64,000 nt of DNA, from the IMG/VR virus record IMGVR_UViG_3300008952_000004, positions 64,001 through 128,000 of that record, one strand, 5' to 3'. Position numbers and translations under genes: made by a program. The DNA comes from a virus. Below the pieces are notes generated by a model. It was not told the origin of the DNA and ran no database searches. It saw only the letters and a program-made list of their open reading frames with translations. How positions within the stretch are numbered: the first letter of the stretch is position 1; each line of letters begins with the position of its first letter. This document shows, piece after piece, positions 1 through 61,586 of the stretch.

Positions 1-3000
1 GGGCATCATTTCTTAACAAAAGACGGTGATGGATTATACAGCTTCGGCGGCGTCAATCGAATATTTACAACTCACGGCACAGCATCCGTTTGCTTTAACC
101 ATTTTTGTTTAGCTGGCACGACGCACGATCATGCTCTTCAGGGTTCAAATATAAACCGTCGTCCGAACGAACCAAACCACATTATGCAATGGCACACAAA
201 CCAATATGCTGGAAGAAATCCGTGGTTTGATTCATATGAAGAATATTCTGAGGACATTCGAGTGATGGGGAAAAACTATACAGTCATTCCGGAATTTAGA
301 ATATCAGAACATATGGAACATTATCTTGACAATGGATTTTTCACAGAACCAAATTATAAATTTTTGTCACTCCTCGGCGCCGCCAACAGTTCCAGCGCCG
401 ATCAATATGATAAAGATTATGTAGAACCGTTTTGGAAAGAGTATTGCCATTCAGATTTTTTGAAACACTTTACTCAAATTCAGGAAGACCACAAGGATAT
501 AGCGCCTGTAACCAGTATAAGTTTTAAGTGCAATGCAATCAAAAAGCTTTTACCATATAATGGATTCTATCCTGTGCAAAGAAGCTTGCAGTTAGCTAGT
601 CTCTTTTCTCAGTCCTATGGACCATACATTGAAGGCTCTTCCAAAGCCGAGTATGGCGGCGCAGGCAAATACCAAGCTGAGAGATTACAATCTCTTCTTC
701 AGCCATTTTATGCGCCGGGTATTATGTATAATACTTTAAAATCTTGTGTAGCAGTTGATTATCCAGTTTGGACCGGCTCAGCCGCAGAAGTTGCAGATAT
801 GCGCGGTTCTTATACAAATCAATCGACGATGACACTTCAAGATTCGGGCTCCCGACGCACTGTTTTGGATGACCCAAATTACAGAATGCCATTTGAAGCA
901 CTCATTGAACCACATAATTATTTACCACAGTCATCCAGTATAACTCCAACGTCTCCTGCTTATGACGCTTCGGCTGAAAATCAAGGGAAACTATATCTTA
1001 CAGCCCCCTATTATGGATCGGCTTCGTTTTATTGCCAGTGGTCTGGACAGTATAAAGACCATTATTCTCTTGCTGCACATAACTTTTTTGCTGAGGTTCC
1101 GAATTTCTTCTTGGAAAATAAGGTATTCACAACATTTGAGAGTGCTCAAGAATCACAGTTTGGGATGATGCGCTCGGGCTCGACCTACTATATGGATGTA
1201 TACATACACAAGACTAACGATTATGTTGCATATGAGAACTTTGCTTATGATACAAAAACAGATGATGATGACGCCATAACCACTCGTGGCTGGGGCTATG
1301 GTCCTCCATTAGATCCAGGCTTAGGCGTGACTGCTGCTGATCCAGCTTGGGCGCCATTTACTCCTCCATATTTTTATGGGCGTTCTGTGGCACGAATTCA
1401 ATTTTCACCACATAAGCATATATTTCTTGATGAGGGGCACCAAGCCCAATTTGGTTTACAAGAGATTATGGACGGAGCAAAAATTGAAACTGAGTTTGTT
1501 CATGAACAACAAATCAATGCGCCGCCATACGAAAAAGAAGTTTCCGAGATAATGGCAATTGCACAGGATGATACTGATACAAATCCGGCTGTCAAAAACC
1601 GGATGCATGTTTCATCTTCTGTGAGCCTGTTCGGTAAGAGAATGAACCTTGCATACGAATATAACCCGTTCACTGGTGAAGCAATATCAGCGACAGAGAA
1701 CCCCCAAGCAGGGTTGGAGAGTTGGGTAATCAATACTAAATTTGAGTGTCCCTCATTGAACTTTTATGGTTCGCATGGCGGAGCACCTGACCATGACGGG
1801 ACCATACCATCGATCCCCGCTGACCCTGCAAATCCCGATCTCACATCGGGCTCCTTGCAACATAGGATTCGTGGCTTATATAATGGATATGGCGAAGTTA
1901 CAGAAAATAGCTCAGGGATATTTTTAGGCGTGCGAGACTCTTTCCCACAAATAACAAATTCAGCAATAAATCCAGATTTGCAAACCACCGGTTCACTTCT
2001 TAAAGTTTTGGGCTTTAAGCCCGAAGAACGAAAGCTTGGTCAACTGGCTGCATCAAAAGAGATATCGGAGGCTGTGGTAGCAATACCTTTTATCGATATT
2101 GAAGGTGAGCGTAAGTTCTTTGGTCTTGGCATGAGCCCCGCACAATCCAGAACAATATTTCAAGATGCCTTTGCTGGAATAGAAGATATAGGTACTTCAA
2201 TTAAAATGTTGGCACAACGAATGCCTAGATATGTCATTCCTCCACATTTTGACTTTCTTAGGGATGAATCAATAGAACCATTTGTAATGTACATATTTGA
2301 ATTTTCTCACAAGCTAACTCGCACGGATTTGAAAAATATTTGGCAAAATGTTATGCCCGATATTGCAGTGACAGCACAGAAAGCCCAGGATATAATAACT
2401 CATTTGGCTGGACCAAACGAATTTTTTAGAGGCAATCCGATTCCAGAACACACTCGGTGGATGGTTTTTAAGGTTAAACAGCGAGCACAAAAAAATTATA
2501 ATAGCTTAACTGCTGATGATTTAGACAACCCGCCGCATACTATAACTGCACAACCATATAGTTATAACTGGCCGTATGATTATTTTTCATTAGTTGAGCT
2601 TGTGAAAGTGGATGCTGCACTTCGAATAGGACAACCAGAAATGCCAATAAAAGCACTAGAAATAGAAAAAATAGACTATACACCGGGTACTGGTACTGAC
2701 ATTGGGCTTGGAGCAAACCTACAGATAGAACAAAACGCTACAAATCTCGGCACCACCATTGCACAGGCAAATCTCGATATGACGGCAATGCCGAGTAATT
2801 TTAACCCTCCAATTATGAACGCTATAGGGGGTACAGTTAAAACTGTTTCACCGGGGCTTCTTATTGAAAAAGCACTTGAACTAGAAAACCCAAAATGGGT
2901 AGGCGGATTTGCTGGTGGACCAATCGCTGGTGATGGTCTGCAAAAAGCTGCTGCCGCCGCGACCACCGGAATGAACCCTGGTAAACAGTCACCGGCTGGT

Positions 3001-3081
3001 GGGTCCAAGTCTGGCGCAGGCGCCAAGGGCTTTGGTTTCGGAAAACCGGGAGGATTTGGAAAACCGGGAGGATTTGATTAA
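1..3081 (+). CDS. Large putative virion/baseplate-associated protein, 5'-truncated
   Basis: Frame of the 184..3081 ORF has no stop from position 1 (GHHFLTKDGDG...), so it starts upstream of the window. It lies in the structural cluster; no catalytic motif recognised; Gly/Phe-rich C-terminus. Confidence 0.6.
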   Translation, partial: GHHFLTKDGDGLYSFGGVNRIFTTHGTASVCFNHFCLAGTTHDHALQGSNINRRPNEPNHIMQWHTNQYAGRNPWFDSYEEYSEDIRVMGKNYTVIPEFRISEHMEHYLDNGFFTEPNYKFLSLLGAANSSSADQYDKDYVEPFWKEYCHSDFLKHFTQIQEDHKDIAPVTSISFKCNAIKKLLPYNGFYPVQRSLQLASLFSQSYGPYIEGSSKAEYGGAGKYQAERLQSLLQPFYAPGIMYNTLKSCVAVDYPVWTGSAAEVADMRGSYTNQSTMTLQDSGSRRTVLDDPNYRMPFEALIEPHNYLPQSSSITPTSPAYDASAENQGKLYLTAPYYGSASFYCQWSGQYKDHYSLAAHNFFAEVPNFFLENKVFTTFESAQESQFGMMRSGSTYYMDVYIHKTNDYVAYENFAYDTKTDDDDAITTRGWGYGPPLDPGLGVTAADPAWAPFTPPYFYGRSVARIQFSPHKHIFLDEGHQAQFGLQEIMDGAKIETEFVHEQQINAPPYEKEVSEIMAIAQDDTDTNPAVKNRMHVSSSVSLFGKRMNLAYEYNPFTGEAISATENPQAGLESWVINTKFECPSLNFYGSHGGAPDHDGTIPSIPADPANPDLTSGSLQHRIRGLYNGYGEVTENSSGIFLGVRDSFPQITNSAINPDLQTTGSLLKVLGFKPEERKLGQLAASKEISEAVVAIPFIDIEGERKFFGLGMSPAQSRTIFQDAFAGIEDIGTSIKMLAQRMPRYVIPPHFDFLRDESIEPFVMYIFEFSHKLTRTDLKNIWQNVMPDIAVTAQKAQDIITHLAGPNEFFRGNPIPEHTRWMVFKVKQRAQKNYNSLTADDLDNPPHTITAQPYSYNWPYDYFSLVELVKVDAALRIGQPEMPIKALEIEKIDYTPGTGTDIGLGANLQIEQNATNLGTTIAQANLDMTAMPSNFNPPIMNAIGGTVKTVSPGLLIEKALELENPKWVGGFAGGPIAGDGLQKAAAAATTGMNPGKQSPAGGSKSGAGAKGFGFGKPGGFGKPGGFD
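3040..3075 (+). repeat. Exact 18-nt tandem repeat x2 (GGAAAACCGGGAGGATTT) encoding GKPGGF
   Basis: Read directly from the sequence at the 3' end of the first ORF. Confidence 0.9.
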
Positions 3082-4193
3082 TGGCTAAATTTTTTAACCC
3101 TAAAGAGGACATAATTGATCTTCAGGTTACATCTTATGGGAAACATGCCCTTTCAAAAGGTGCTTTCGTTCCAAAGTATTATGCTTTTTTTGATGATGAC
3201 ATTTTATATGATTCTCAATGGGCATCTGCTTCTTATGGCGAACAACAAAATGAGATTAAAGAACGTTTAATAAACGAAACTCCCAGAATAAAAGTTGCAC
3301 CAGCGCTATCTGGAGTTGAAACAAATATTAAGAAGGCGGTGGAGATGGTTAAACATAATCTTGCCCACATCGGCGCCCAACAAATACAGCCCGCCAAGGA
3401 TAAACACTTTGCATTGCCAATGCCGCTTGGTAATAGCTCTTTAGGGAGTATCTCATTACCGGCTTGGGATTTATATTTTTTAAAGGGTGAAATATCGGAC
3501 TCGGCATATCACTATTCAGGATCCGCTCAGGCACCACATATAAGAACTCCTCAAATTAATGCAGAGATAACTTATAGAGTTACGCCGTTTACAAGTGCTC
3601 AGAAGATTCCATTAAGTGAAGCCGAGGCTAAAGTTAACGCAACAGGGATCGATGGTTCGACACTGAGTTCAGATGCTGACACTATTGGAGTTTGGGGTGG
3701 CTTATTTGACGACTTTATCGATGGCTCCAGGCTGAAGATTTATAAGGATTCGTTAATCATAGAATTGAATGAGGAAAATACAGATTACCTTGCAGATAAT
3801 TTTGACATCGAAGTATATGAAACCAGACAGGTCACAGGATCTGCCTATCCCGGCGACAAAGGTCTTCAGGTTGTTGAGGAATTAATCCCGTTGTATTTCG
3901 CTCGCGGTCGCCGCCCTGACACGGGTGTTTCATATCTTTCTGACGAACATTTCGATCTCGACGAATCAATAATAGACGCAGATTCTAATTATGTTGAATA
4001 TTTTTTCGAGATTAATGTGGATAAGGAAATTGAGACTTCCGAGCTATGCGCGCACTTACCTCATGAGAAGTCAAGAAGAAAGAATTTACTTAGAGAGGTA
4101 GACTGCGGACGAACCCAGGGCAAGACAATTAAAGATGCTGCTTACGGCGCATATGCTGATTCCATCACTGTTGATCCGGAGGATTGTGAATAA
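3081..4193 (+). CDS. Hypothetical virion protein; N-terminus paralogous to 10744..11658
   Basis: EDIIDLQVTSYGKHALSKGAFVPKYYAFFDDDILY aligns with GDIILDAVLTDTGRFRLAKGDGSFKIAKFALADDEINY; coupled to upstream stop (TAATG). Confidence 0.65.
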   Translation: MAKFFNPKEDIIDLQVTSYGKHALSKGAFVPKYYAFFDDDILYDSQWASASYGEQQNEIKERLINETPRIKVAPALSGVETNIKKAVEMVKHNLAHIGAQQIQPAKDKHFALPMPLGNSSLGSISLPAWDLYFLKGEISDSAYHYSGSAQAPHIRTPQINAEITYRVTPFTSAQKIPLSEAEAKVNATGIDGSTLSSDADTIGVWGGLFDDFIDGSRLKIYKDSLIIELNEENTDYLADNFDIEVYETRQVTGSAYPGDKGLQVVEELIPLYFARGRRPDTGVSYLSDEHFDLDESIIDADSNYVEYFFEINVDKEIETSELCAHLPHEKSRRKNLLREVDCGRTQGKTIKDAAYGAYADSITVDPEDCE

Positions 4194-7100
4194 TGCCAGC
4201 AATAGGACAACAACAAATTCTGGGCGCCTTGGTGCCGGATATAAGTATCGATAAAATAACATTGGAGTCTGCACCTACAGTGCAAAAAAGGCGCCGAAGT
4301 GATCGCATTTCAGCGCACGTGCAAGAGAACAAGGTCGACGGGACTTCTTTAGAGTTTATTGAAGGATACCAGAACATCCACGCCGACCCTGAAAAAAATC
4401 TTACTGTCACATTGAGTATGAGCATTAAAGACCGTCTAGATAATGGCTCCATCACTACGTGGTTTAATAATCAAAACATTCATGAATTCTTACATGTGAC
4501 AGTCGTACAGTCGATCGATCCCTTTACCAGCAAGCTGTTATCAGCATCAAACAACGCCATTCAAATAGCTAATTTCAGTTCAGGACAAGATCAAGGCTGG
4601 GAACAACCTGGCGGCATGAAAGAAAAAATAATGTCTATGCTAATAGATATATCTGGAGATCCCGAATTTAAGGATTTTCAGAACAAATTCGGCATCGATG
4701 CAAGCTTAAACGGCGCACAATCTGAAGCAGTCTTTGAGTGGATGAATTCATTTATGACCACGAAAGGGATGACATTCTCTCAGATTGCCGCCCAAAACGA
4801 CATTGGCGATCTTATGGATAGTCAATATAGCGATGAAAATACCAATTCATTTGACGTGCCTTTCCAGCTTCAATTCGAATTACAGGGGACACCTCAACAT
4901 TTATCATACTTTGCCGTGGTTGCGTTTTCACCATCGGCAATTCAAAATAAATATGGCGTTCATATGGATGATCCATTCTTTATTGATATGATGACTGGTA
5001 ATACCGTAGGGGAGCTTGTTATTAACGGGAGTCGGGTGATTGACCAATCATATATTTATAGGATGATTGACGGTACGATTTATACAGGACCGGTTGAACA
5101 TATTAATGATTCTTGGTGGTGGGTTGGAGCAAACACAGCGACTGATGAGCCGCTTACGAGAGATCTGTACCCACATAGTAAAGTGCAAGATTTTCGAGTG
5201 CTTGAAAGATTGAAAGACATGAGGTTTGCTTTTACTGAAGCGCAGGCAAATTTGATGGACTCTGTTGGCAAATATAAAACACCACATTCAGAAAAAATAT
5301 CTTGGGATTTACAAAAAATATATTTTTCTAATTTTGCTATAACGACCACCCCTAATCATAATCTTAAATTCGCTTTCAGTATGGACTACGGTTCACTAGT
5401 GAGAGATAATACAAAATTTTCAAAACTTTTTAAGATTCCGAAGTCCGGATGGACAGCAGATACTCTAAAAGAATTGATGTCTGCTGTTGAGATAGCAAAC
5501 ATGACGATCCTTCGTCGCCGAGTATCAAATGAATATCAGGGCTTGAACGCTTTAGGCTCACCAGCCGATCTCCGAAATATATTTAATGAGGCAGAACAGG
5601 TGCCGGTGGTTATTGCTTCCGGTCGAGATGTTTCAGGAAAGCTGGAGGAAGTACCCTCTCCCATAGGGTTAATTAAAGAGTCTAAGATTCAAACCGCAGG
5701 TGACACGCCGCTGCATGCGATTCGGCATTTCGAAGCTGCTGACAACACAATGAGCACAGTCACTGACGGACATTATCAATATGGTGTAGAGCTTGAGATT
5801 AAAGATAACACTCATAAAAAAATAGCTAATCTGTTGCAGGATTTGCTTGTGCATAAAGCCGAGTTTGATAAATACGCCTTAGCTGCAAGTGTACCAACTA
5901 CTGGTACCAAAGGCAGTGATGCGTCTAGCGTGACCACCAGATCTGGTTACGGTCTGTCTGCTTCGCAAACACTGGAAAAAAGAACACTGGGTGTATTTGA
6001 TCCGGTCAGAAATCGCTTTACTGATAAATTTATAAAAGAACAAGAAGCATTATATAAAACTCCTACAGTGTTTATCTCAGACAAGCCATGGGAAATGGCA
6101 CCTTTTGCTTATTTTGTATTTCTCAGTTTAATATCTGGAGGCACAGATCTGGATATCAGCGGCAATACAATAGAACAGCTTGTGAAATCGATTGCCCCTG
6201 ATACTGGAACACCACAAGGTATAAGCCTCTTTCAAAAGCTTATGGACGATCTAGTTTCCAAAGTCGAGGGTTATATAAAATCACAGATGGCAGAGTCTAG
6301 CAATAAAACTGGCGCCACTAAAGCGGCTATGCCTTTGGCACCAAGTCACCGCACTTTTAAAATAGCACACTGGTTTGGTGAAACATGGGATAGCAATTTA
6401 CCAAAAGTGGGTTATGATTATTTGTCGGAAGGTACAATTGATGTGACGGATCCGACACAGGGTTTAAAAAATATTCCACTGAATCAATACGAAAATGTGG
6501 TTAATGCTGAAACCACAAAACATTGGAAATCTTTAGGTGAACAGTTGGAGGTTACTAAGGGCGGCAAATCTATCAACACGGGCGATAATCTTGATGCAAC
6601 AAAATGGGAATATTTAACGCCATCTAATGTGGACCTCGGTGATAACGGCGGCTGCTTCCAAACAGATCCGGTCAGTTCCGAAAAGAACGCTATGATGAAG
6701 TCTGCAATTCAAAAATTAAATCAAACCAAGCAAAGTCCATTTTTACCTATTATGCCCTTCCTTGATATAAAACCAATTTTAAAGAGTGTTGGCAAAAGAG
6801 CAGAGACAAGAGAAACCGCGACCGGAAACCACTCCGCTGCAAACTTATTAATGACCAAGGTAAACGTGGCAGACATATTAGCCAACACCGTAAACCTCAC
6901 GGTCCATGTTCCAGATATTATCGCGACTGGGACAGGCGCCAAGTCTTTGCTTGAGGGCATCACAAATAGAGCAGCCGACGATCCTTGGGTTGATGCCACT
7001 AAGAACTTGGGGGATGCTTACGATTTTGTCGATCCAATTGATCCGACCAAGGTCCGGAAACAAAGTCCAGTAATATACGAAGAAGACGCTATAGTTTTAT

Positions 7101-54003: not shown

Positions 54004-55197
54004 TTGTTTTTTCAACCGTTAGATACTAAAAAAGAGTGCGCTGGTATATATGCCGATGGTAAAATACACAATGACAGCATACCTGTAGGCTTGACCGCAA
54101 CGTGGAAATATAGTTCTCATCTCGATTTGCCTTCTGTGGAGTATGCCAACTTGTATTGCGGCGGCAAATCAATAGCAGAAGTAGTACCAGATTCAAAGAG
54201 GGACAATTGGGAGCTTTTGAACAATAAGTTGCAGGCATACCTCCGAGCTTGCAATACCGCAAAGGTTGATTTAGAAGAAAACTGTTTTTTTGACATTGTG
54301 CCTGAAAAATTCTTATTGCAATATTGTGAAATGAGGAATGACGTTACTAAACACGTTATATTGAACAACAAGAAGCCCGCGAATTATGATTTCTTGTTAG
54401 AGTTAGTTAAGTTTTTATCAAAACTTAGGCACCAACACCTTAAACTTGATCTTACACCGCTCTCAAAGCTCGTGGCGCTGCCCCGTACACGCATTTTATA
54501 TAAGCGCCTTATGAAAAGATCGAGTCACTATATTGAATACGACCCGTTCAAATCTAAGACCGGTCGACTTACAACAACAAAATTAAGTTTTCCTATATTG
54601 ACATTAGATAGGAATTATCGCTCTATAATAAAACCACAGAATGATTTTTTTGTTGAGTTGGATTTTAATGCCGCAGAGCTTCGCACACTGCTGGCGCTCT
54701 CTGGCAGAGAACAACCAAAAACGGATATTCATGATTGGAACGCAAAAAATATATACCGTTCAAGCGTCCTGTCACGTGACGCTGCCAAGAAAAGAATATT
54801 TGCTTGGTTATACAATCCAAACTCTAAGGATTTCCTTCCTTCAGACGTATATGATCGAGAGAAAGTCTTGGTAAAATACTTTGACGGTAGTACAGTGACC
54901 ACTGTATTTGATAGAAACATTCCAGCCGACAATCATCATGCCTTAAATTATATTATTCAGAGTACTACAAGCGATTTGTTCTTAAAAAGAGCGCTAGAAA
55001 TTGATAAAATACTATGTAGTCAAAGCTCAAATATAGCTTTTTTACTGCACGACTCGTTGGTAATTGATTTTGCAAAGAAAGATATGGGTTTATTGAACAA
55101 CATTATAAACACGTTTAGTGACACGGATTTAGGCTCATATGTTACAAATGTTTCAGTGGGTCGCGATTATGGGAATATGAAGAGGTATAATAAATGA
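54004..55197 (+). CDS. Minimal family A DNA polymerase-like protein (polymerase domain only)
   Basis: TGRL, motif A LDFNAAELR, DIH, motif B RDAAKKRIFAWLY, ALNYIIQS, motif C LHDSL, VGRDYG; TTG start after GAGGT. Confidence 0.8.
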   Translation: MFFQPLDTKKECAGIYADGKIHNDSIPVGLTATWKYSSHLDLPSVEYANLYCGGKSIAEVVPDSKRDNWELLNNKLQAYLRACNTAKVDLEENCFFDIVPEKFLLQYCEMRNDVTKHVILNNKKPANYDFLLELVKFLSKLRHQHLKLDLTPLSKLVALPRTRILYKRLMKRSSHYIEYDPFKSKTGRLTTTKLSFPILTLDRNYRSIIKPQNDFFVELDFNAAELRTLLALSGREQPKTDIHDWNAKNIYRSSVLSRDAAKKRIFAWLYNPNSKDFLPSDVYDREKVLVKYFDGSTVTTVFDRNIPADNHHALNYIIQSTTSDLFLKRALEIDKILCSQSSNIAFLLHDSLVIDFAKKDMGLLNNIINTFSDTDLGSYVTNVSVGRDYGNMKRYNK

Positions 55198-56030
55198 GCG
55201 GTGTCATAGGCTTAGGATCATTTGCTTGTGAATTAGCGAATGAGTTTAAAAAATATCCCCAATATGAGGTATATAATATCTTGGTTGGAACAAAAAAAAT
55301 ATATAGAAAGCGGGCACATATCCCTCCACAGTCAACACCGGAAAAATATGAAGAAAATTGCCCGTCTTTTAAAAAACTTTTTAAAACAAATCTTCCGGAA
55401 GAAGTATTGTTTGTTGTCGACGGCACCGAGCTTGTTTCGGCAGCATCTTTAAGAATCTTATCGGAAATCAAAGACCATAAAATAACTGTTTTATATCTCA
55501 ATTCGGCATCGCGAGCACTTTCAGAAGAACAAATTTTGAATGCCCGCGCTATTCGTGGGATACTTCAAGAGTATGCAAGGTCAGGGGTTTTTGAAAAAAT
55601 AATATTTGTTGACCTTGAACTGGTTGGTACCATATTACCAGAGACAACAATTAAAAGTTATTATTCTAAGATTCGTGAAATGGTTGTATCGACGTTGCAC
55701 ATGATCGAGGTGCTTTCGAGATCAAAAAGTGTGTTGGGAAATTTATCACCACCTCACGAGACATCTCGGGTGGTGACGATAGGAATAAAAGATTTCGAAA
55801 CTGGCAAAGAAAATATGTTTTTTCCGCTTGACTTTCCGAGAGAAAAGTGTTATTTTTATGCAATCGGGAAAGAAAAGATAGAAACCGACACAACGCTTAT
55901 GAAGAAGATTAAGGAACAAGCAGAGCAAGAAAAGACCACTCAGGTGAAACGCTCATATGGTGTCTATTCTACAGACTATGAAGATGATTACGTTTATGTT
56001 GTATATCGAGCTTCGGCTATACAAAAATAA
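55194..56030 (+). CDS. Divergent tubulin/FtsZ-like protein
   Basis: N-terminal VIGLGSFACELA Rossmann-type loop; strand/helix order and spacing fit the FtsZ/TubZ/PhuZ GTPase domain, but GGGTG(S/T)G is replaced by DGTELVSA. Confidence 0.45.
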   Translation: MSGVIGLGSFACELANEFKKYPQYEVYNILVGTKKIYRKRAHIPPQSTPEKYEENCPSFKKLFKTNLPEEVLFVVDGTELVSAASLRILSEIKDHKITVLYLNSASRALSEEQILNARAIRGILQEYARSGVFEKIIFVDLELVGTILPETTIKSYYSKIREMVVSTLHMIEVLSRSKSVLGNLSPPHETSRVVTIGIKDFETGKENMFFPLDFPREKCYFYAIGKEKIETDTTLMKKIKEQAEQEKTTQVKRSYGVYSTDYEDDYVYVVYRASAIQK

Positions 56031-56038
56031 AAAAAAGC

Positions 56039-56067
56039 TTGACAAAGAGAATTTACTGTGTTACAGT
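56039..56067 (+). promoter_or_regulatory. Putative sigma70-type promoter
   Basis: A-tract, then TTGACA-N17-TACAGT with TG extended -10; upstream of SSB. Confidence 0.75.
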
Positions 56068-56125
56068 ATGGATTAGAAACTTAGAAGATTAGCTGAGTTT
56101 ACTTTAACAATTAGGAGAAAAGTTA

Positions 56126-56896
56126 ATGGCAATTGATTTAAAAAAGATTCAAGAAAGAAAGTTCGCTCTTGAAAATCGAGGCGGCTCAAAACAAAAAAAT
56201 GGGTTTTGGAAGCCGCAAGATGGCGAACAAACAATTCGGATTATTCCGACGGCAGACGGGGATCCGTTTAAGGATTATTGGTTCCACTATAACGTGGGCA
56301 AGAATTCTGGTTTCCTTTGTCCGAAAAAAAACTACGGAGAGGACTGTCCTGTCTGTGAATTTGCTAGCAATCTATGGCGTGAAGGCGACGATGGAAGCAA
56401 GAAGATGGCTAAATCCCTCTTTGCGCGACAACGTTTCTTCTCTCCTGTGATGGTCCGAGGAGAAGAAGCTCAGGGGGTCCGAGTCTGGGGCTATGGAAAG
56501 ATGGCGTATGAGACGCTGCTTAACCTAGTGTTAAACCCGGAGTATGGGGATATTACCGATACTGAAGCTGGGACAGATTTGGTCATGACATATGGCAAAC
56601 CTCCCGGTGGGCAATTTCCATTAACAAAGCTCACACCAAAGCGCTCAACTTCGCAATTTTGCGAGGATGTGACACCTGAACGTTGCAAAGAAATTTTGGA
56701 TGCTATTCCAAACTTTGAAGACTTGTTTGATCGCAAGACTACTTCAGACGTTCAGGCTCTATTGGATGAATTCCTGCTTTCTGATGACGATGCCGAGTCG
56801 GCATCAACTGAGACAGTAAAATATTCTTCCACAAGCGATACAGCTTCGGAAGCGAACACTGTTTCGGATGCTTTTGATGAGCTATTAGGTAGCTAG
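56126..56896 (+). CDS. Single-stranded DNA-binding protein (T4 gp32-like)
   Basis: FWKP...IRIIP, H...C...CPVC Zn site, acidic C-terminal tail. Confidence 0.82.
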   Translation: MAIDLKKIQERKFALENRGGSKQKNGFWKPQDGEQTIRIIPTADGDPFKDYWFHYNVGKNSGFLCPKKNYGEDCPVCEFASNLWREGDDGSKKMAKSLFARQRFFSPVMVRGEEAQGVRVWGYGKMAYETLLNLVLNPEYGDITDTEAGTDLVMTYGKPPGGQFPLTKLTPKRSTSQFCEDVTPERCKEILDAIPNFEDLFDRKTTSDVQALLDEFLLSDDDAESASTETVKYSSTSDTASEANTVSDAFDELLGS

Positions 56897-56900
56897 TTTA

Positions 56901-56937
56901 TTATCCCACAGGGGGGCACAGGGTTATCAGGTGTCTC
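56901..56937 (+). ncRNA. Structured intergenic RNA element, copy A
   Basis: TTATCCC-ACAGG-GGGGCAC-A-GGGTTA-TCAG-GTGTCTC; homologous to copy B with compensatory changes. Confidence 0.6.
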
Positions 56938-56965
56938 GAACCAATTTTATTTAAAGAGGAAAAAA

Positions 56966-57391
56966 ATGAGCAAAGCTAAAAATGGAAATAATGTCAAAGT
57001 ACATTATAAAGGAACTCTTAATGATGGTACTGTGTTCGATAGCAGTCATGACCGGGGGCAAACCTTGGATTTTGAATTGGGTTCAAAAACCCTTTTGCCT
57101 GACTTTGAGAAAGCTGTCGTAGGTATGACAGTAGGTGCCAAGAAATCTTTTAAGATTACAGAAGGTTACGGAGTATATGATCCAACAGCAGTTGTGAAAG
57201 TATCTAAAGAGGTTTTTCCGTCTGACTTCGTTTTCGAAGTTGGCACATCTGTGCAGGGAACTAGCCCAAATGGTCAAGTAGCAGTTGCTAAAATCAACTC
57301 AGTTACAGACACCGAGGTCGAATTGGATCATAACCATCCACTCGCAGGGCAAGACCTTAATTTTGAAGTTGAGTTAGTCGACATCGGTTAA
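56966..57391 (+). CDS. FKBP-type peptidyl-prolyl isomerase (SlyD/SlpA-like with IF domain)
   Basis: VKVHYKGTLNDGTVFDSS, FEKAVVGM, YG, DHNHPLAGQDLNFEVELV. Confidence 0.92.
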   Translation: MSKAKNGNNVKVHYKGTLNDGTVFDSSHDRGQTLDFELGSKTLLPDFEKAVVGMTVGAKKSFKITEGYGVYDPTAVVKVSKEVFPSDFVFEVGTSVQGTSPNGQVAVAKINSVTDTEVELDHNHPLAGQDLNFEVELVDIG

Positions 57392-57394
57392 CTT

Positions 57395-57430
57395 TAATCC
57401 CGCAGGGAGGCATGGGTTTATAGATGCCTC
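57395..57430 (+). ncRNA. Structured intergenic RNA element, copy B
   Basis: TAATCCC-GCAGG-GAGGCAT-GGGTTTA-TAG-ATGCCTC; perfect 7-bp stem. Confidence 0.6.
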
Positions 57431-57454
57431 AATTTACATTCATGGGAGAAGAAT

Positions 57455-58582
57455 ATGGCAAGACCGAAGTCAGGAAAAAAAACAAAAGTTGGTAAGCTGA
57501 GCATCGCTGATATGCGCTCTCTTATTAATAAGAAGGCGGGAATTAACGTTGCACACAACCTAGCAGAGAAGAACCCGACAGAGGTGAGCGATTGGATCCC
57601 TACAGGATCTCGATGGCTAGATTCTATTATTTGTCGTGGTCATCTGGCAGGGATACCAGTAGGCAAAATCACAGAAATCGCCGGATTAGAGTCGACAGGA
57701 AAATCTTTTTTAGCAGCACAGGTTGCCGCGAACGCTCAAAAAATGGGAATCGACGTAATATATTTCGATTCAGAATCAGCGATTGATCCAGAGTTTTTGG
57801 CTCGTGGTGGCTGTGATGTTGATCGAGTATTATACGTTCAGGCTCAATCAGTGGAGTTTGTATTAGAAACCATTGAAGATCTTTTGGAGACAAATGAGAA
57901 CCGGATGCTCTTTATATGGGACTCTTTAGCGCTTACACCATCCACAACAGATGTAGAGGGGGACTTCAACCCTTTGTCATCGATGGCAGTAAAGCCAAGA
58001 ATCTTATCAAAGGGAATGTCAAAGTTGACTGTTCCAATCGCGAACAGCCAATCAACATTTCTGGTTCTTAATCAGCTTAAAACAAATATCACAAGCAACA
58101 TTGCGGAAGCGCTTACGACGCCATATTTTACGCCCGGTGGAAAGGCAATGCATTATGCGTATTCACTTCGCATTTGGCTCACGGGGCGCAAGGCGAAAAA
58201 TGCATTTGTCACGGATGAGCGCGGCTTCCGTATCGGATCTGAAGTTAAAGCCAAGATTCAAAAGTCGCGCTTTGGGACGCAAGGTCGCCAAAGTGCTTTT
58301 AAAATCCTTTGGGGTGAAGAGGTCGGAGTCCAAGACGAAGAAAGTTGGCTCGAAGCAATCAAGGGATCGGATAATTTAAAAAATGCTGGTGCTTGGTATC
58401 AGTTGGTTTATGAAGACGGCTCTGTGGATAAATTTCAAAGTGCTCATTGGCTTGATAAGCTTAAAAATGAAAAATTTAAAAATAGGGTCTTACAAATAAT
58501 GGACGAAGAAGTTATACTCAAGTTTGATAAACGCACAGGAGATGCCACAGACTTTTATGGAGATGATGAAGATGAAAAATAA
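57455..58582 (+). CDS. recA: RecA/UvsX recombinase
   Basis: IPTGS, Walker A GLESTGKS, YFDSE, IWDS, NQLK, TPGGKAMHYAYSLRI. Confidence 0.92.
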   Translation: MARPKSGKKTKVGKLSIADMRSLINKKAGINVAHNLAEKNPTEVSDWIPTGSRWLDSIICRGHLAGIPVGKITEIAGLESTGKSFLAAQVAANAQKMGIDVIYFDSESAIDPEFLARGGCDVDRVLYVQAQSVEFVLETIEDLLETNENRMLFIWDSLALTPSTTDVEGDFNPLSSMAVKPRILSKGMSKLTVPIANSQSTFLVLNQLKTNITSNIAEALTTPYFTPGGKAMHYAYSLRIWLTGRKAKNAFVTDERGFRIGSEVKAKIQKSRFGTQGRQSAFKILWGEEVGVQDEESWLEAIKGSDNLKNAGAWYQLVYEDGSVDKFQSAHWLDKLKNEKFKNRVLQIMDEEVILKFDKRTGDATDFYGDDEDEK

Positions 58583-59240
58583 AATTGTTTTATTATTAGG
58601 TGGTATCCTTTTAACAATGGCAAGCTTTTCGCAAGCACATGCCAGACGATGCGTTCGAACACCAGATCCTATTGTTTTGCAGAAAAGTTCGGCTGGAGAA
58701 TACGTGGCTGTCTGGGATACATTTGATCGCAATCCGAGAATTTATTATAGTGACATTGCTCAGTACTATAATTCACCGAATGTACAGTTTTTTGATGTTG
58801 GATATGTGATAGCCGAATTCGATTCAGAATCAAATATTTGGTTATTTTATGGATGGGTTGGTGATAATTTAATCAAGCGCACGCATCGCCACTGGCGCAA
58901 ACATCGACGCTCTTATCGGCGATGTTTGGGCTATGCTGGACATTATCATTATAAGCCATATTATCCACATTATACATATGATTGGTTTTCCTCAAGTCTT
59001 CAATATCACCACCGACTATATCGGAAGCGATATTATGGAGACGGCACGAAACGCCGACTCCATCGTTATTACAAGCCTAGGCATGGTTATCGAAGTCATA
59101 ATCACACCCGTCGCCCTCGTCATTATCAGCCACGGAGAAAATACAGAAGACCGCAGGTTACGCAGCCGCATAAGCAACGCAGAAAACCACACCATAAAAA
59201 AAGAAACAAGAAACAAAAACGTCGCAATCAACGCCGATAA
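58572..59240 (+). CDS. Secreted protein with His/Arg/Tyr/Lys-rich basic tail
   Basis: Start reassigned to ATG 58572 (GGAG upstream); signal peptide MKNKIVLLLGGILLTMASFSQAHA. Confidence 0.6.
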   Translation: MKNKIVLLLGGILLTMASFSQAHARRCVRTPDPIVLQKSSAGEYVAVWDTFDRNPRIYYSDIAQYYNSPNVQFFDVGYVIAEFDSESNIWLFYGWVGDNLIKRTHRHWRKHRRSYRRCLGYAGHYHYKPYYPHYTYDWFSSSLQYHHRLYRKRYYGDGTKRRLHRYYKPRHGYRSHNHTRRPRHYQPRRKYRRPQVTQPHKQRRKPHHKKRNKKQKRRNQRR

Positions 59241-59254
59241 GATTAGGTGCTTTA

Positions 59255-60229
59255 ATGACTCCAAGAATATTAATCATCGATGCTCTTAATATGTATTTCA
59301 GAGCATATATTGTAGATCCGAGCCTATCGACCAACGGTCAGCCAATCGGCGGCACTAAGGGTTTCTTGAAAATTTTGCAAAAACTGGTGCGTGAGACGAA
59401 GCCGGATCAGGTTGTTATTGCTTGGGATGGCGCTGGTGGTTCCCAAAAACGAAAGAGTATTGATAAAAATTATAAAGAGGGGCGCAAGCCCATTCGTCTC
59501 AATCGCGAGATTCGTAATCTCTCCGAGAACGAAGAGATGGAAAATAAGATTTGGCAGCAGACTCGACTGGTAGAATATTTAAATTGCATGCCAGTATGCC
59601 AGATAATGCTGCCAGCAATTGAGGCGGATGATGTGATTGCTTATGTTGTGAGTATGTCATCTTTAAAGGGCTGGCAAAAGGTTATTGTGTCAAGTGACAA
59701 AGATTTTTATCAACTGTGCGATGGCGAAACTGTGCTGCACCGACCCATTCAAAAGGCAACTTTGAACAAACATCGTATTATAGAAGAACATGGAATTCAT
59801 CCTTTAAACTTTGCTCTCGCACGCGCCGTCTGTGGCGACAAAAGTGATAATCTTAAAGGTGTTGGGGGCGTGGGCTTGGCTACGATGTCCAAGCGGTTTC
59901 CGTTTTTGGCAGAAGAGAAGTCCTATACAATTGACGAGCTAGTTGATTATTGCGACGATTGTGAAAACAAATTAAAAGTACACCATAACATTCTCGACGG
60001 ACGTGGTATAATAGAAAAGAACTATAGATTAATGCAACTTTACTCACCGAGTATTTCACCTCAATCTAAAAAGATTATTAAACACACGGTTGAGGAGACG
60101 ACTCTGGAGTTTAATAAGACAGAGGTACTGAAGATGATGAACACAGATGGGTTTGGAGTGTTTGACTGGACAAGTCTATTTCAGACGATGCGGCGAATTG
60201 TGGCTGCGGAGGTAGCGAATGGCACTTAA
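59255..60229 (+). CDS. 5'-3' exonuclease/flap endonuclease (T4 RNase H / Pol I N-domain-like)
   Basis: IIDALN, AWDG, YKEGRK, EADD, SSDKDF, GDKSDN, GVGGVG (H3TH). Confidence 0.92.
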   Translation: MTPRILIIDALNMYFRAYIVDPSLSTNGQPIGGTKGFLKILQKLVRETKPDQVVIAWDGAGGSQKRKSIDKNYKEGRKPIRLNREIRNLSENEEMENKIWQQTRLVEYLNCMPVCQIMLPAIEADDVIAYVVSMSSLKGWQKVIVSSDKDFYQLCDGETVLHRPIQKATLNKHRIIEEHGIHPLNFALARAVCGDKSDNLKGVGGVGLATMSKRFPFLAEEKSYTIDELVDYCDDCENKLKVHHNILDGRGIIEKNYRLMQLYSPSISPQSKKIIKHTVEETTLEFNKTEVLKMMNTDGFGVFDWTSLFQTMRRIVAAEVANGT

Positions 60230-61586
60230 CAGAAACGTAGATTTTTCAAAATTTGGAAAAGCCTTTCAAGAGGGGCTAGCCCAACTTATCATGGAGGACC
60301 GCCCCTTCGCAGATCAAATTCAGGAGGTTCTGTCAATAGACTTTTTTGAATTAAAATATTTGCAAGCCTTTACCAAAAAGGTTTTTGATTTTAAGATCAA
60401 GTACGATGTGCACCCATCAAAGGATGCCATGCTGTCAGTGCTCCGTGCAGAGCTTGATGACGAAAGCCCAGCTACCCAAAAACAAACCCGAGATTTCTTT
60501 GCAAGAATTTATAAATCTGAGATAGAAGTTGGCGGCGAAGAATATATTAAAGAGACAGCCCTTGACTTCTGCCGAAAGCAGAAACTAAAAGAGGCTATGA
60601 TCAAGTCTGTTGGGTTACTTGAGGCGTCATCGTTTGATGAGATCAGTTCGCTGATCAATGATGCTCTGAAGCTTGGCTCTAATACTGACTTTGGTTATGA
60701 CTACATGGCGGACTTTGAAGAGCGATTTAAAATCAAAGCGCGTAACCCTATCAGTACAGGCTGGCAGATTATCGATAGTCACTGCAAGGGCGGTCTTGGT
60801 GTTGGAGAACTGGGTGTTGTTATCGCTCCAACTGGCGCCGGAAAATCAATGGTGCTGGTACATCTGGGAGCAGAAGCGTTAAAGCAGGGTAAGACGGTTG
60901 TGCATTATACTTTGGAATTAGCACCAACCGTAATTGCGGGTCGCTACGATAGTTGTATTACTGGTATACCTCTTCCACAACTTTTCGGTTGCAAGGAGGG
61001 CATTTATGAGACGGTAAAAGACTTAGAGGGTCAATTAATAATCAAAGAATACCCAACCAAGACAGCCTCTCCAAACGTTATTCGTAATCATATGGAAAGA
61101 CTTCGGCAGCGGGATATCAAGCCGGATTTAATCATTGTGGATTATGCAGATTTATTGCGACCAAATGTGGTTCGAAAAGAAAAAAGACACGAACTGGAGA
61201 CTATTTACGAAGATCTTCGCGGCATAGCGCAGGAGCATAAATGCCCGTGTTATACCGCATCGCAAACTAATAGGTCTGGATTGAACGCAGAAGTAATCAC
61301 AATGGAATCCATTTCCGAAGCCTTTAACAAGTGTTTTGTGGCAGATTTTATATTTTCCGTGTCTAGAACAGTTGAAGATAAAAATACAAATGGCGGACGA
61401 GTGTTTTTAGCAAAAAATAGGAATGGACCTGATGGAATCATTTATCCTATTTTTATGGACACTGCGCGGGTTAAAATAAAAGTTCTCCCACAAGATGGTA
61501 CTACCGTTGAACAGATCGTTGCACAATCGACAGCCCAACAAGGTAAACAGTTGCGTGAGAAATACAAAGAATACAGAAAAAAATAA
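60219..61586 (+). CDS. dnaB: Replicative DnaB-like helicase (gp41-like)
   Basis: APTGAGKS, TLEL, IIVDYADL, ASQTNR, KNRNGP. Confidence 0.9.
   Translation: MALNRNVDFSKFGKAFQEGLAQLIMEDRPFADQIQEVLSIDFFELKYLQAFTKKVFDFKIKYDVHPSKDAMLSVLRAELDDESPATQKQTRDFFARIYKSEIEVGGEEYIKETALDFCRKQKLKEAMIKSVGLLEASSFDEISSLINDALKLGSNTDFGYDYMADFEERFKIKARNPISTGWQIIDSHCKGGLGVGELGVVIAPTGAGKSMVLVHLGAEALKQGKTVVHYTLELAPTVIAGRYDSCITGIPLPQLFGCKEGIYETVKDLEGQLIIKEYPTKTASPNVIRNHMERLRQRDIKPDLIIVDYADLLRPNVVRKEKRHELETIYEDLRGIAQEHKCPCYTASQTNRSGLNAEVITMESISEAFNKCFVADFIFSVSRTVEDKNTNGGRVFLAKNRNGPDGIIYPIFMDTARVKIKVLPQDGTTVEQIVAQSTAQQGKQLREKYKEYRKK

Follow-up and report, generated by a model that had tools for sequence, protein, structure and literature searches.

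A repeated pseudoknotted RNA element between the single-stranded DNA-binding protein and UvsX genes of uncultured large marine phages

Introduction

Two described phage systems bear closely on the element reported here. PeSL motifs of T4-type phages, which join a strong sigma-70 promoter to a GGGG...CCCC stem-loop, are spread over many hyperplastic regions (PMC2839356, PMC4122927), and the gene 32 mRNA leader of T4, T2 and T6 folds into an autoregulatory pseudoknot that lies 5' of gene 32 and controls that gene (PMC3014915). The element in question, very probably a conserved pseudoknotted RNA, occurs twice in a 64,000-nt stretch of phage DNA (hereafter the window), which comprises bases 64001–128000 of the 189,713-bp IMG/VR virus record IMGVR_UViG_3300008952_000004, rated complete. 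One copy separates the gene of a gp32-like single-stranded DNA-binding protein (SSB) from that of an FKBP-type peptidyl-prolyl isomerase (PPIase), and the other separates the latter from a UvsX/RecA-like recombinase gene.

By analogy, the PeSL motifs would be the system whose working the element most resembles. Both are short conserved intergenic repeats with a terminator- or attenuator-like stem-loop, both border small dispensable ORFans of a hyperplastic region, and in both cases units of repeat plus open reading frame (ORF) are inserted, deleted and replaced between close relatives. Unlike PeSL motifs, however, the element brings no promoter with it (the 24–28 nt from stem to next ATG in the window hold no -35/-10 match), combines a pseudoknot whose loop-flank pairing covaries with loop nucleotides that do not vary, and is confined to one locus, from SSB to UvsX, in phages that are not T4-type (they have a family A polymerase, and the UvsX protein of the window is at most 32% identical to that of any cultured phage). 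With the T4 gene 32 pseudoknot it shares a small H-type fold with a 7-bp stem, a gp32-type SSB gene as its neighbour and an unstructured run of A/U-rich sequence leading up to the ribosome-binding site, but it is found 3' of the SSB gene and ahead of other genes, is repeated, and differs in sequence and loop layout (stem 1 of 3 bp, loop 1 of 5 nt); moreover, a separate hairpin is conserved in the leader of the SSB gene of these phages. The preQ1-I aptamers and the luteovirus frameshift and murine leukaemia virus readthrough pseudoknots are likewise of about 30–35 nt, with one 3-bp stem and conserved loops, and stand 6–8 nt from a decoding site, whereas the element shows no Rfam similarity, no coherent regulated gene set and no conserved extended frame.

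Results and Discussion

Two copies of one element flank the FKBP gene

The same element is found in both the SSB-FKBP and the FKBP-UvsX gap, as the first-pass annotation of this DNA had noticed. Its fold consists of a 7-bp hairpin (stem 2) whose loop carries G-G-Y, which pairs with an X-C-C located 5 nt upstream of the hairpin to make a 3-bp stem 1; X stands three nucleotides before R-C-A-G-G, and Y follows the G-G of the loop. The two copies read CCC-ACAGG-GGGGCAC-A-GGG-TTATCAG-GTGTCTC (copy A) and CCC-GCAGG-GAGGCAT-G-GGT-TTATAG-ATGCCTC (copy B), and their parts are located in Table 1. Stem 2 includes two G-U pairs in copy A and is made of seven Watson-Crick pairs in copy B, with a predicted stability of -10 to -11 kcal/mol for the window copies. 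Copy A has the SSB stop 8 nt upstream and the FKBP ATG 28 nt downstream; for copy B, the FKBP stop lies 7 nt upstream and the UvsX ATG 24 nt downstream. In the register common to the family, stem 1 of copy B is reduced to two pairs by a C57399/U57417 mismatch, the sole C/U case among 149 copies, although a shift by one restores three C-G pairs.

A covariance model built from relatives and run over all 189,713 bp of the genome detected these two sites alone (E = 2e-11 for copy B and 1.5e-9 for copy A), the next-best match scoring 11 bits with an E of 1.5, so that both copies clearly exceed chance. A 16-nt degenerate motif also picks out copies A and B only, in the window and in the entire genome. 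Folding each copy as a single sequence gave nothing significant by itself (z of -0.8 to -1.3), and the case for the element therefore rests on comparison with relatives.

Table 1. Location of the elements and associated features. Plain positions are those of the window; positions with an L prefix refer to related contigs.
Feature	Position	Strand	Basis or details
Sigma-70-type promoter-like site	56039..56067	+	TTGACA, 17 nt, TACAGT, with TG; 10/12 matches, best in 55000-60500
Separate conserved hairpin, SSB 5' leader	56075..56103	+	stem 56077-56084 with 56093-56100, outer A-G/C-U pairs
gp32-like SSB gene	56126..56896	+	256 aa; Pfam gp32; stop TAG 56894-56896
Element copy A, subtype 1 (CC-A-CAGG ... 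A-GGG-TTATCAG)	56905..56937	+	alignment with relatives and covariance model, 50.0 bits
Copy A, stem 1	56905-56907 with 56921-56923	+	X-C-C with loop GGG
Copy A, loop 1	56908-56912	+	ACAGG
Copy A, stem 2	56913-56919 with 56931-56937	+	GGGGCAC with GTGTCTC
Copy A, hairpin loop	56920-56930	+	A-GGG-TTATCAG; loop 2 = 56920, loop 3 = 56924-56930
FKBP-type PPIase gene	56966..57391	+	141 aa; Pfam FKBP_C; ATG 56966, stop TAA 57389-57391
Element copy B, subtype 2-like (CC-G-CAGG ... G-GGT-TTATAG)	57399..57430	+	alignment with relatives and covariance model, 57.8 bits
Copy B, stem 1, family register	C57400-G57416, C57401-G57415	+	CCC = 57399-57401
Copy B, stem 1, register shifted by one	57399-57401 with 57414-57416	+	three C-G pairs
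Copy B, loop 1	57402-57406	+	GCAGG
Copy B, stem 2	57407-57413 with 57424-57430	+	GAGGCAT with ATGCCTC
UvsX/RecA-like recombinase gene	57455..58582	+	375 aa; Pfam RecA, PHROG UvsX-like; ATG 57455
Variants with an insert in loop 3	L142:7509-7574, L167:2302-2367, L128:4418-4482, L165:1751-1815, L258:443-532, L225:1155-1207		
Cassette ORFs	L048:3064-3348, L114:3600-3833, L050:3648-3929, L061:3723-3935, L070:2715-2960, L006:1500-1697, L024:1736-2020, L126:1745-3349		

Both stems covary in relatives

Relatives were gathered through the UvsX protein, of which IMG/VR holds 593 confirmed homologs, the best 80 of these 593 serving as loci. The same sequence stands upstream of UvsX in many of them. A regular-expression search of these loci gave 65 copies, 65/65 on the gene strand. 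In an alignment of 56 copies, 99.3% of the stem 2 cells are paired and none of 500 shuffles reached the observed covariation, the paired fraction being far lower in shuffled and slid controls; in a second alignment, from contigs gathered independently of the first, the figure is 99.4% for 104 model matches. Both values have to be read knowing that stem 2 was restricted to purine/pyrimidine classes in the regular expressions, which favours pairing there, and that the model-based set was likewise fitted to this stem. Four of its pairs covary between Watson-Crick types (G-C/A-U, A-U/G-C, A-U/C-G and C-G/U-A), one alternates between G-C and G-U, and two are essentially invariant. Among the 104 model matches, for example, pair 19-35 is A-U in 87 and C-G in 8, and pair 20-34 is C-G in 64 and U-A in 28. 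Overall, 4–6 of the 7 bp are G-C.

The pseudoknot itself was assessed with the X-Y pair, which together with two invariant C-G pairs forms the 3-bp stem 1. X lies outside the search patterns and Y at an unconstrained position, neither being fixed by pattern or model, and their pairing was therefore not selected for. In 149 unique copies X-Y is C-G in 67, A-U in 58, U-G in 8, G-C in 4, U-A in 2, G-U in 2 and mismatched in 8, i.e. paired in 141 (94.6%) when 48.6% would be expected if the positions were independent. Covariation of stem 2 and of X-Y across the 56-, 104- and 149-copy sets, together with strand specificity, agrees with the H-type pseudoknot proposed in the first-pass annotation, and we are confident, from sequence comparison, that the element is a real and conserved pseudoknotted RNA. 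Two details of that proposal did not survive the wider alignment. It had drawn a 6-bp stem 1 with a shared U-U mismatch, but the two outer pairs form in no more than 61% and 39% of the 56 copies; and the competing UCCC-RCA-GGGR mini-hairpin, from which a switch had been suggested, shows no covariation, its third pair being unpaired in 23/56 copies.

Besides the paired positions, the family keeps near-invariant nucleotides in loop 1 (C-R-G-G) and at the 3' end of loop 3 (A-N-A-G), and the inner stem pairs are also invariant (G16, G17, C18); about 20 positions of the 34-nt pseudoknot are near-invariant. The purine after X-C-C tracks the nucleotide before G-G-Y (G/G 96, A/A 50, A/G 3), a linkage that may reflect two subtypes or a non-canonical contact. 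G-U wobbles are frequent (26/56 and 25/95 at one pair), and such pairs, like the strict gene-strand bias, fit RNA better than duplex DNA. The GGAG and GGA that might suggest Shine-Dalgarno (SD) mimicry or sequestration, or a CsrA-type GGA site, fall by inspection in covarying stem positions (with GA, AA and GG variants), and these candidates were rejected.

The hairpin loop is normally of 9–11 nt, and of 20–60 nt in insertion variants. In six copies from five contigs loop 3 holds an insert of 10–50 nt, the longer ones forming an extra hairpin. These variants (Table 1) keep X-C-C, loop 1, the stem, G-G-Y and the A-U-A-G junctions, with X-Y being G-C in two. Two other hairpins followed by a T-run, located after SSB in L023 (~3935-3990) and L064 (~3735-3790), with the form ACC-GAU-GGCAGAC-C-GGG(U/A)U...GUCUGCC, are possibly a distant variant of the element; they were excluded from the family, being undetected by the model and inconsistent in their loop-flank pairing.

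A family found in one clade of marine phages

A further pattern scan, of all IMG/VR, used a pattern starting at CAGG only, and numbers drawn from the matches listed are lower bounds. Among those listed, CC-R-C precedes CAGG, though it lies outside the pattern, in 83 of the 85 matches read, all from new loci. Together with the model search of further contigs mentioned above, the pooled family amounts to at least 149 distinct copies, from related marine myophage contigs and on the coding strand throughout. Contigs carry between 0 and 4 copies, clustered at the SSB-UvsX locus. The 190-kb phage of the window has 2, two complete relatives of 184–186 kb have 0 and three partial ones have 2–3; a genome-wide repeat or general terminator is ruled out by such numbers.

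Outside viral collections, 185,579 prokaryote genomes were scanned, and true copies appeared only on 6 contigs of metagenome-assembled genomes (MAGs) that resemble the same phage clade; about 45 further prokaryote matches are chance hits in GC-rich coding DNA, and copies of the element in hosts were rejected. One of the MAG contigs, L229 (CP070664.1, a 2.8-Mb 'chromosome' labelled candidate division WOR-3), has at ~1300-5240 of the locus a module of PolA-like protein, 278-aa protein, SSB (59% identity), element and UvsX (81% identity), which may represent a phage fragment wrongly assembled or binned, an integrated copy, or else an indication of the host. Other MAG contigs with copies are L247, L258 (from a Flavobacteriales MAG) and L218 (from a Halobacteriovorax MAG). 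All contigs encoding the exact SSB of the window come from metagenomic DNA.

A search of the window and 14 related loci against Rfam 15 returned nothing at the gathering threshold, in keeping with the earlier description of the RNA as unannotated, and at E up to 10 only chance-level matches to freshwater-2, TPP and snoRNA families. The freshwater-2 match, at 17.6 bits against a cut-off of 49.9, is driven by the SD region. The element is a family new to Rfam, but may be included in a 2023 catalogue of 8,495 unnamed structured-RNA candidates from IMG/VR (PMC10690425).

The element separates exchangeable gene cassettes

The general arrangement is SSB - element - (small ORF - element)n - UvsX, the UvsX gene being the downstream neighbour of the last element of the array, and only few arrays extend past it. 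Among 132 non-redundant copies, SSB is directly upstream in 72 (44/74 in a scan unbiased by UvsX), and the downstream gene is UvsX in 46 and FKBP in 12. The remaining flanking ORFs make up 58 clusters of mostly small proteins, FKBP being one of at least 58 unrelated cassette families. Cassette products include lipobox-bearing peptides, an Hc1-like protein of 65 aa and a DUF7695 zinc ribbon.

The first-pass annotation had suggested that the copies could mark how the PPIase gene was inserted, and this is borne out by relatives with 0, 1 or 2 cassettes, in which the number of elements is that of cassettes plus one. Phages with 92–96% identical UvsX proteins display the whole range: SSB-element-UvsX without FKBP in L005, one FKBP cassette in the window, L004 and L040, and two cassettes in L003. 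Copy B is of a different subtype from its counterpart in L004, even though the 3' end of FKBP and the UvsX leader are nearly identical; the core of the element has itself been exchanged between conserved flanks.

Such exchange, the cassette and repeat arrays at a single locus beside recombination genes and the strand-specific orientation would suit an element that acts as DNA, its plus-strand hairpin folding in single-stranded DNA as a cassette-capture recombination site, comparable to an integron attC site, or as a priming or loading signal, with the RNA incidental. We consider this very improbable: frequent G-U(T) wobbles and the covarying loop-flank pair fit RNA better, the spacing from stop and start codons is tied to translation signals, and no dedicated recombinase or integrase was noticed near the arrays, although no systematic search was made.

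Many of the cassette genes (Table 1) encode proteins of 70–95 aa with a signal peptide and a lipobox cysteine, possible superinfection-exclusion lipoproteins. Others encode an Hc1 histone-like protein (PF07432, E 3.5e-16), a DUF7695 zinc ribbon or a 534-aa HATPase_c_3 protein. In L070 (2967-3078), a tRNA gene (Rfam tRNA, 67.5 bits) stands between the cassette array and UvsX, and a copy of the element ends 8 nt upstream of it.

Terminator-like features and a tentative function

The element keeps a fixed position between its neighbouring genes. The distance from stop codon to X has its mode at 6–8 nt and is never below 5, and the distance from the end of the stem to the next start has a median of 28.5 nt and a 10th–90th percentile range of 19–66 nt. 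Downstream of the stem the consensus is C (83%), A (82%), any base and then T in 65–72% at four positions (3–6), compared with 32% T upstream, and about half of the copies have a T-run of at least 4. The C-A-N forms a spacer of 2–3 nt between the stem and the U-rich tract, which is weak in the window copies. Like Rho-independent terminators and attenuators, the element presents a stem and, at the level of the family, a U-rich tract on the coding strand just past a stop codon, and the G+C and length of its stem (about 5–14 bp in terminators) are suitable. It departs from them in its loop of 9–11 nt (up to ~60 nt with inserts) instead of 3–8 nt, its spacer, its conserved sequence and its pseudoknot, and also in that it does not end a transcription unit: UvsX, and in one case a tRNA, depend on readthrough.

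That readthrough follows from the distribution of promoters. The only good match before UvsX is the site upstream of SSB, whose TTGACA/TAnnnT arrangement is common to most relatives, and none was found inside or after either element, where the gap to the next start also leaves no room for one; SSB, FKBP and UvsX are thus probably co-transcribed, and with no promoter between SSB and UvsX the elements must be read through for UvsX to be expressed. At the same time, among 59 distinct relatives the SSB gene is followed by the element in 30, by a GC-rich hairpin with a T-run in 19 and by something else in 10. On the SSB tree these states switch at least 15 times, compared with ~25 when labels are shuffled, indicating that element and plain hairpin terminators are interchangeable at this position. 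The earlier statement that the element has no U-tail, and hence is no terminator, holds roughly for both window copies but not for the family, which has the U-rich tract and gives way to plain terminators in relatives.

Our preferred reading, offered tentatively and with somewhat less than even confidence, is that the element is a leaky, pseudoknot-locked terminator or pause and an mRNA-end structure in the SSB operon, and that its repeats are boundaries of cassette recombination. Transcribed within the early SSB operon, it would have two roles, that of a leaky intrinsic terminator or a pause hairpin and that of a stabiliser at 3' ends or between cistrons; SSB message would be abundant and a fraction of the RNA polymerases would read on to the cassettes and UvsX. 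The pseudoknot would lock a long loop that otherwise weakens the hairpin. X-C-C would be barely covered, or just reached, by a ribosome positioned on the upstream stop codon, and stem 1 would form only when that ribosome is absent, so that attenuation could depend on translation. As with the PeSL motifs of T4-type phages, the near-identical direct repeats of 30–40 nt would supply the homology for inserting, deleting and swapping small early genes such as FKBP.

Several observations weigh against this reading. The post-stem tails of the window copies are weak (GAACCAAUUUUAUUU; AAUUUACAUU), and a simple terminator scan calls neither copy, the loop being longer than 8 nt and the tail too poor in T. 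Ordinary terminators are present at other places in the window, leaving a special one here unexplained. The U-rich tract 2–3 nt past the stem could just as well serve the next gene, as a translational enhancer of the S1 type or as an RNase E site. Finally, a plain terminator needs neither the invariant nucleotides of loops 1 and 3, nor the invariant inner pairs, nor the optional loop 3 hairpins; such features point to a recognition event that involves a protein, a ligand or a tertiary fold, which the attenuator model does not explain.

A stronger version, which we regard as unlikely, is a new class of regulated pseudoknot-terminator in which stem 1 would form only without a ribosome on the stop codon, or with a protein or ligand in an invariant pocket of loops 1 and 3, the same fold being the dedicated recombination site of a cassette-capture locus between the SSB and recombinase genes; if true, the fold would decide between ending the abundant SSB message and reading on.

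Cutting of the early transcript between cistrons has to be considered as well, either by RNase E in the A/U-rich tract or by a phage nuclease, which would leave the upstream message with a protective 3' pseudoknot and give each cassette its own half-life. RNase III sites in T7 are an analogue of such processing. One copy after every cistron, the C-A-N and A/U-rich single strand after the stem, and the copy directly before a tRNA gene, which needs processing, are all in line with this. It is, however, a decidedly doubtful explanation: a 7-bp stem is too short for RNase III, and processing overlaps the attenuator reading rather than excluding it.

The element stands at the distance of recoding pseudoknots (5–9 nt after the site), but without a conserved extended or fused frame: an in-frame downstream ORF is present in 36 of ~116 cases and open throughout in 10, which is the chance level, and the median extension past the stop is ~20 codons in all three frames. 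Stop-codon readthrough, frameshifting and fusion were rejected on these grounds. In the window, SSB (at its TAG) and the FKBP start share one frame, with 69 stop-free nt between them (56894-56968), so that readthrough would fuse the two proteins; the arrangement is probably a coincidence.

Possible protein or ligand recognition and the SSB leader hairpin

The conserved loops could alternatively be an operator, the pseudoknot being a nucleation or recognition site for an RNA-binding protein of phage or host (the gp32-like SSB, a RegA-like repressor or an antiterminator). Such a protein would act on the cistron that begins ~28 nt farther on, past an unstructured A/U-rich stretch, through its translation or through readthrough into it, much as the T4 gene 32 pseudoknot does for gene 32. 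Several features are what such a site would have: loop nucleotides and inner stem pairs invariant beyond the needs of pairing, an A/U-rich stretch holding the SD after the pseudoknot, tight linkage to the SSB gene and optional loop 3 hairpins that leave the conserved junctions intact. Still, we think this rather unlikely. The distance to the next start varies over the range given above, the regulated genes would be an arbitrary set (the 58 clusters) and a dedicated operator would not be expected to give way to plain terminators as freely as the element does on the SSB tree. Besides, a better candidate for autoregulation is found at the other end of the SSB gene.

This is a bulged 10-bp hairpin in the SSB 5' leader, distinct from the twin element and downstream of the promoter-like site (Table 1). 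Its 8-nt loop is AAGATTAG in the window and GAGAGTTA or GAAATTTG elsewhere, and it is followed by a conserved ACTTTAAC and the SD. Across 40 relatives, 8 of the 10 predicted pairs have compensatory changes, and the hairpin is present whether the 3' side of SSB has the pseudoknot or a plain terminator. It is a candidate for an autoregulatory operator or for a stabiliser at the 5' end of the SSB message; the R-A-G of the loop could pair with a downstream C-U-U. Since SSB has this covarying leader hairpin of its own, the 3' pseudoknot is less likely to be the SSB autoregulatory operator.

A riboswitch-like sensor is to our mind the least probable of the explanations. The 34-nt pseudoknot would be a small aptamer on its own terminator stem, whose ligand would stabilise stem 1 and alter termination. 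The compact fold with its near-invariant positions, the insertions of variable length tolerated at a single site and the terminator-like stem and tail within the conserved fold are compatible with it. Against it, the downstream genes have no common function (FKBP, UvsX, tRNA, lipoproteins, the Hc1-like protein, DUF7695 and proteins without assignment), several copies stand in series within one operon, there is no conserved alternative (anti-terminator) pairing, and no Rfam riboswitch is similar.

Whichever signal the element provides, it could help to show what balance a phage strikes between SSB and recombinase expression and, with respect to the leaky terminator that we favour, whether a pseudoknot can tune or gate an intrinsic terminator in concert with translation of the gene before it. 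Its 34 nt put direct structural and mutational analysis within easy reach. The locus would likewise lend itself to asking how small early genes (FKBP, lipoproteins, histone-like proteins) are captured and shuffled at one fixed site outside the T4-type phages, in which PeSL motifs were described.

The phage and the surrounding genes

Terminase, portal, major head protein and tail sheath genes in the same genome identify a large contractile-tailed phage, and the elements belong to a marine myophage of ~190 kb. BLASTN of the 4-kb region against cultured phages gave no match, and the element-bearing phages are an abundant clade of large marine phages without a cultured member. All long ORFs of the window are on the + strand. 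The order at the locus is short family A polymerase, 278-aa protein, gp32-like SSB, FKBP-type PPIase, UvsX/RecA-like recombinase, 5'-3' exonuclease and DnaB-like helicase. Elsewhere in the window, a motif (A)ACTATTTAT(A/T) is present in at least 9 gaps upstream of structural genes (~10700, 18760, 29470, 33780, 34340, 39985, 42925, 44650 and 48005), and is likely a late-promoter box, unlike the sigma-70-type promoter that serves the SSB operon.

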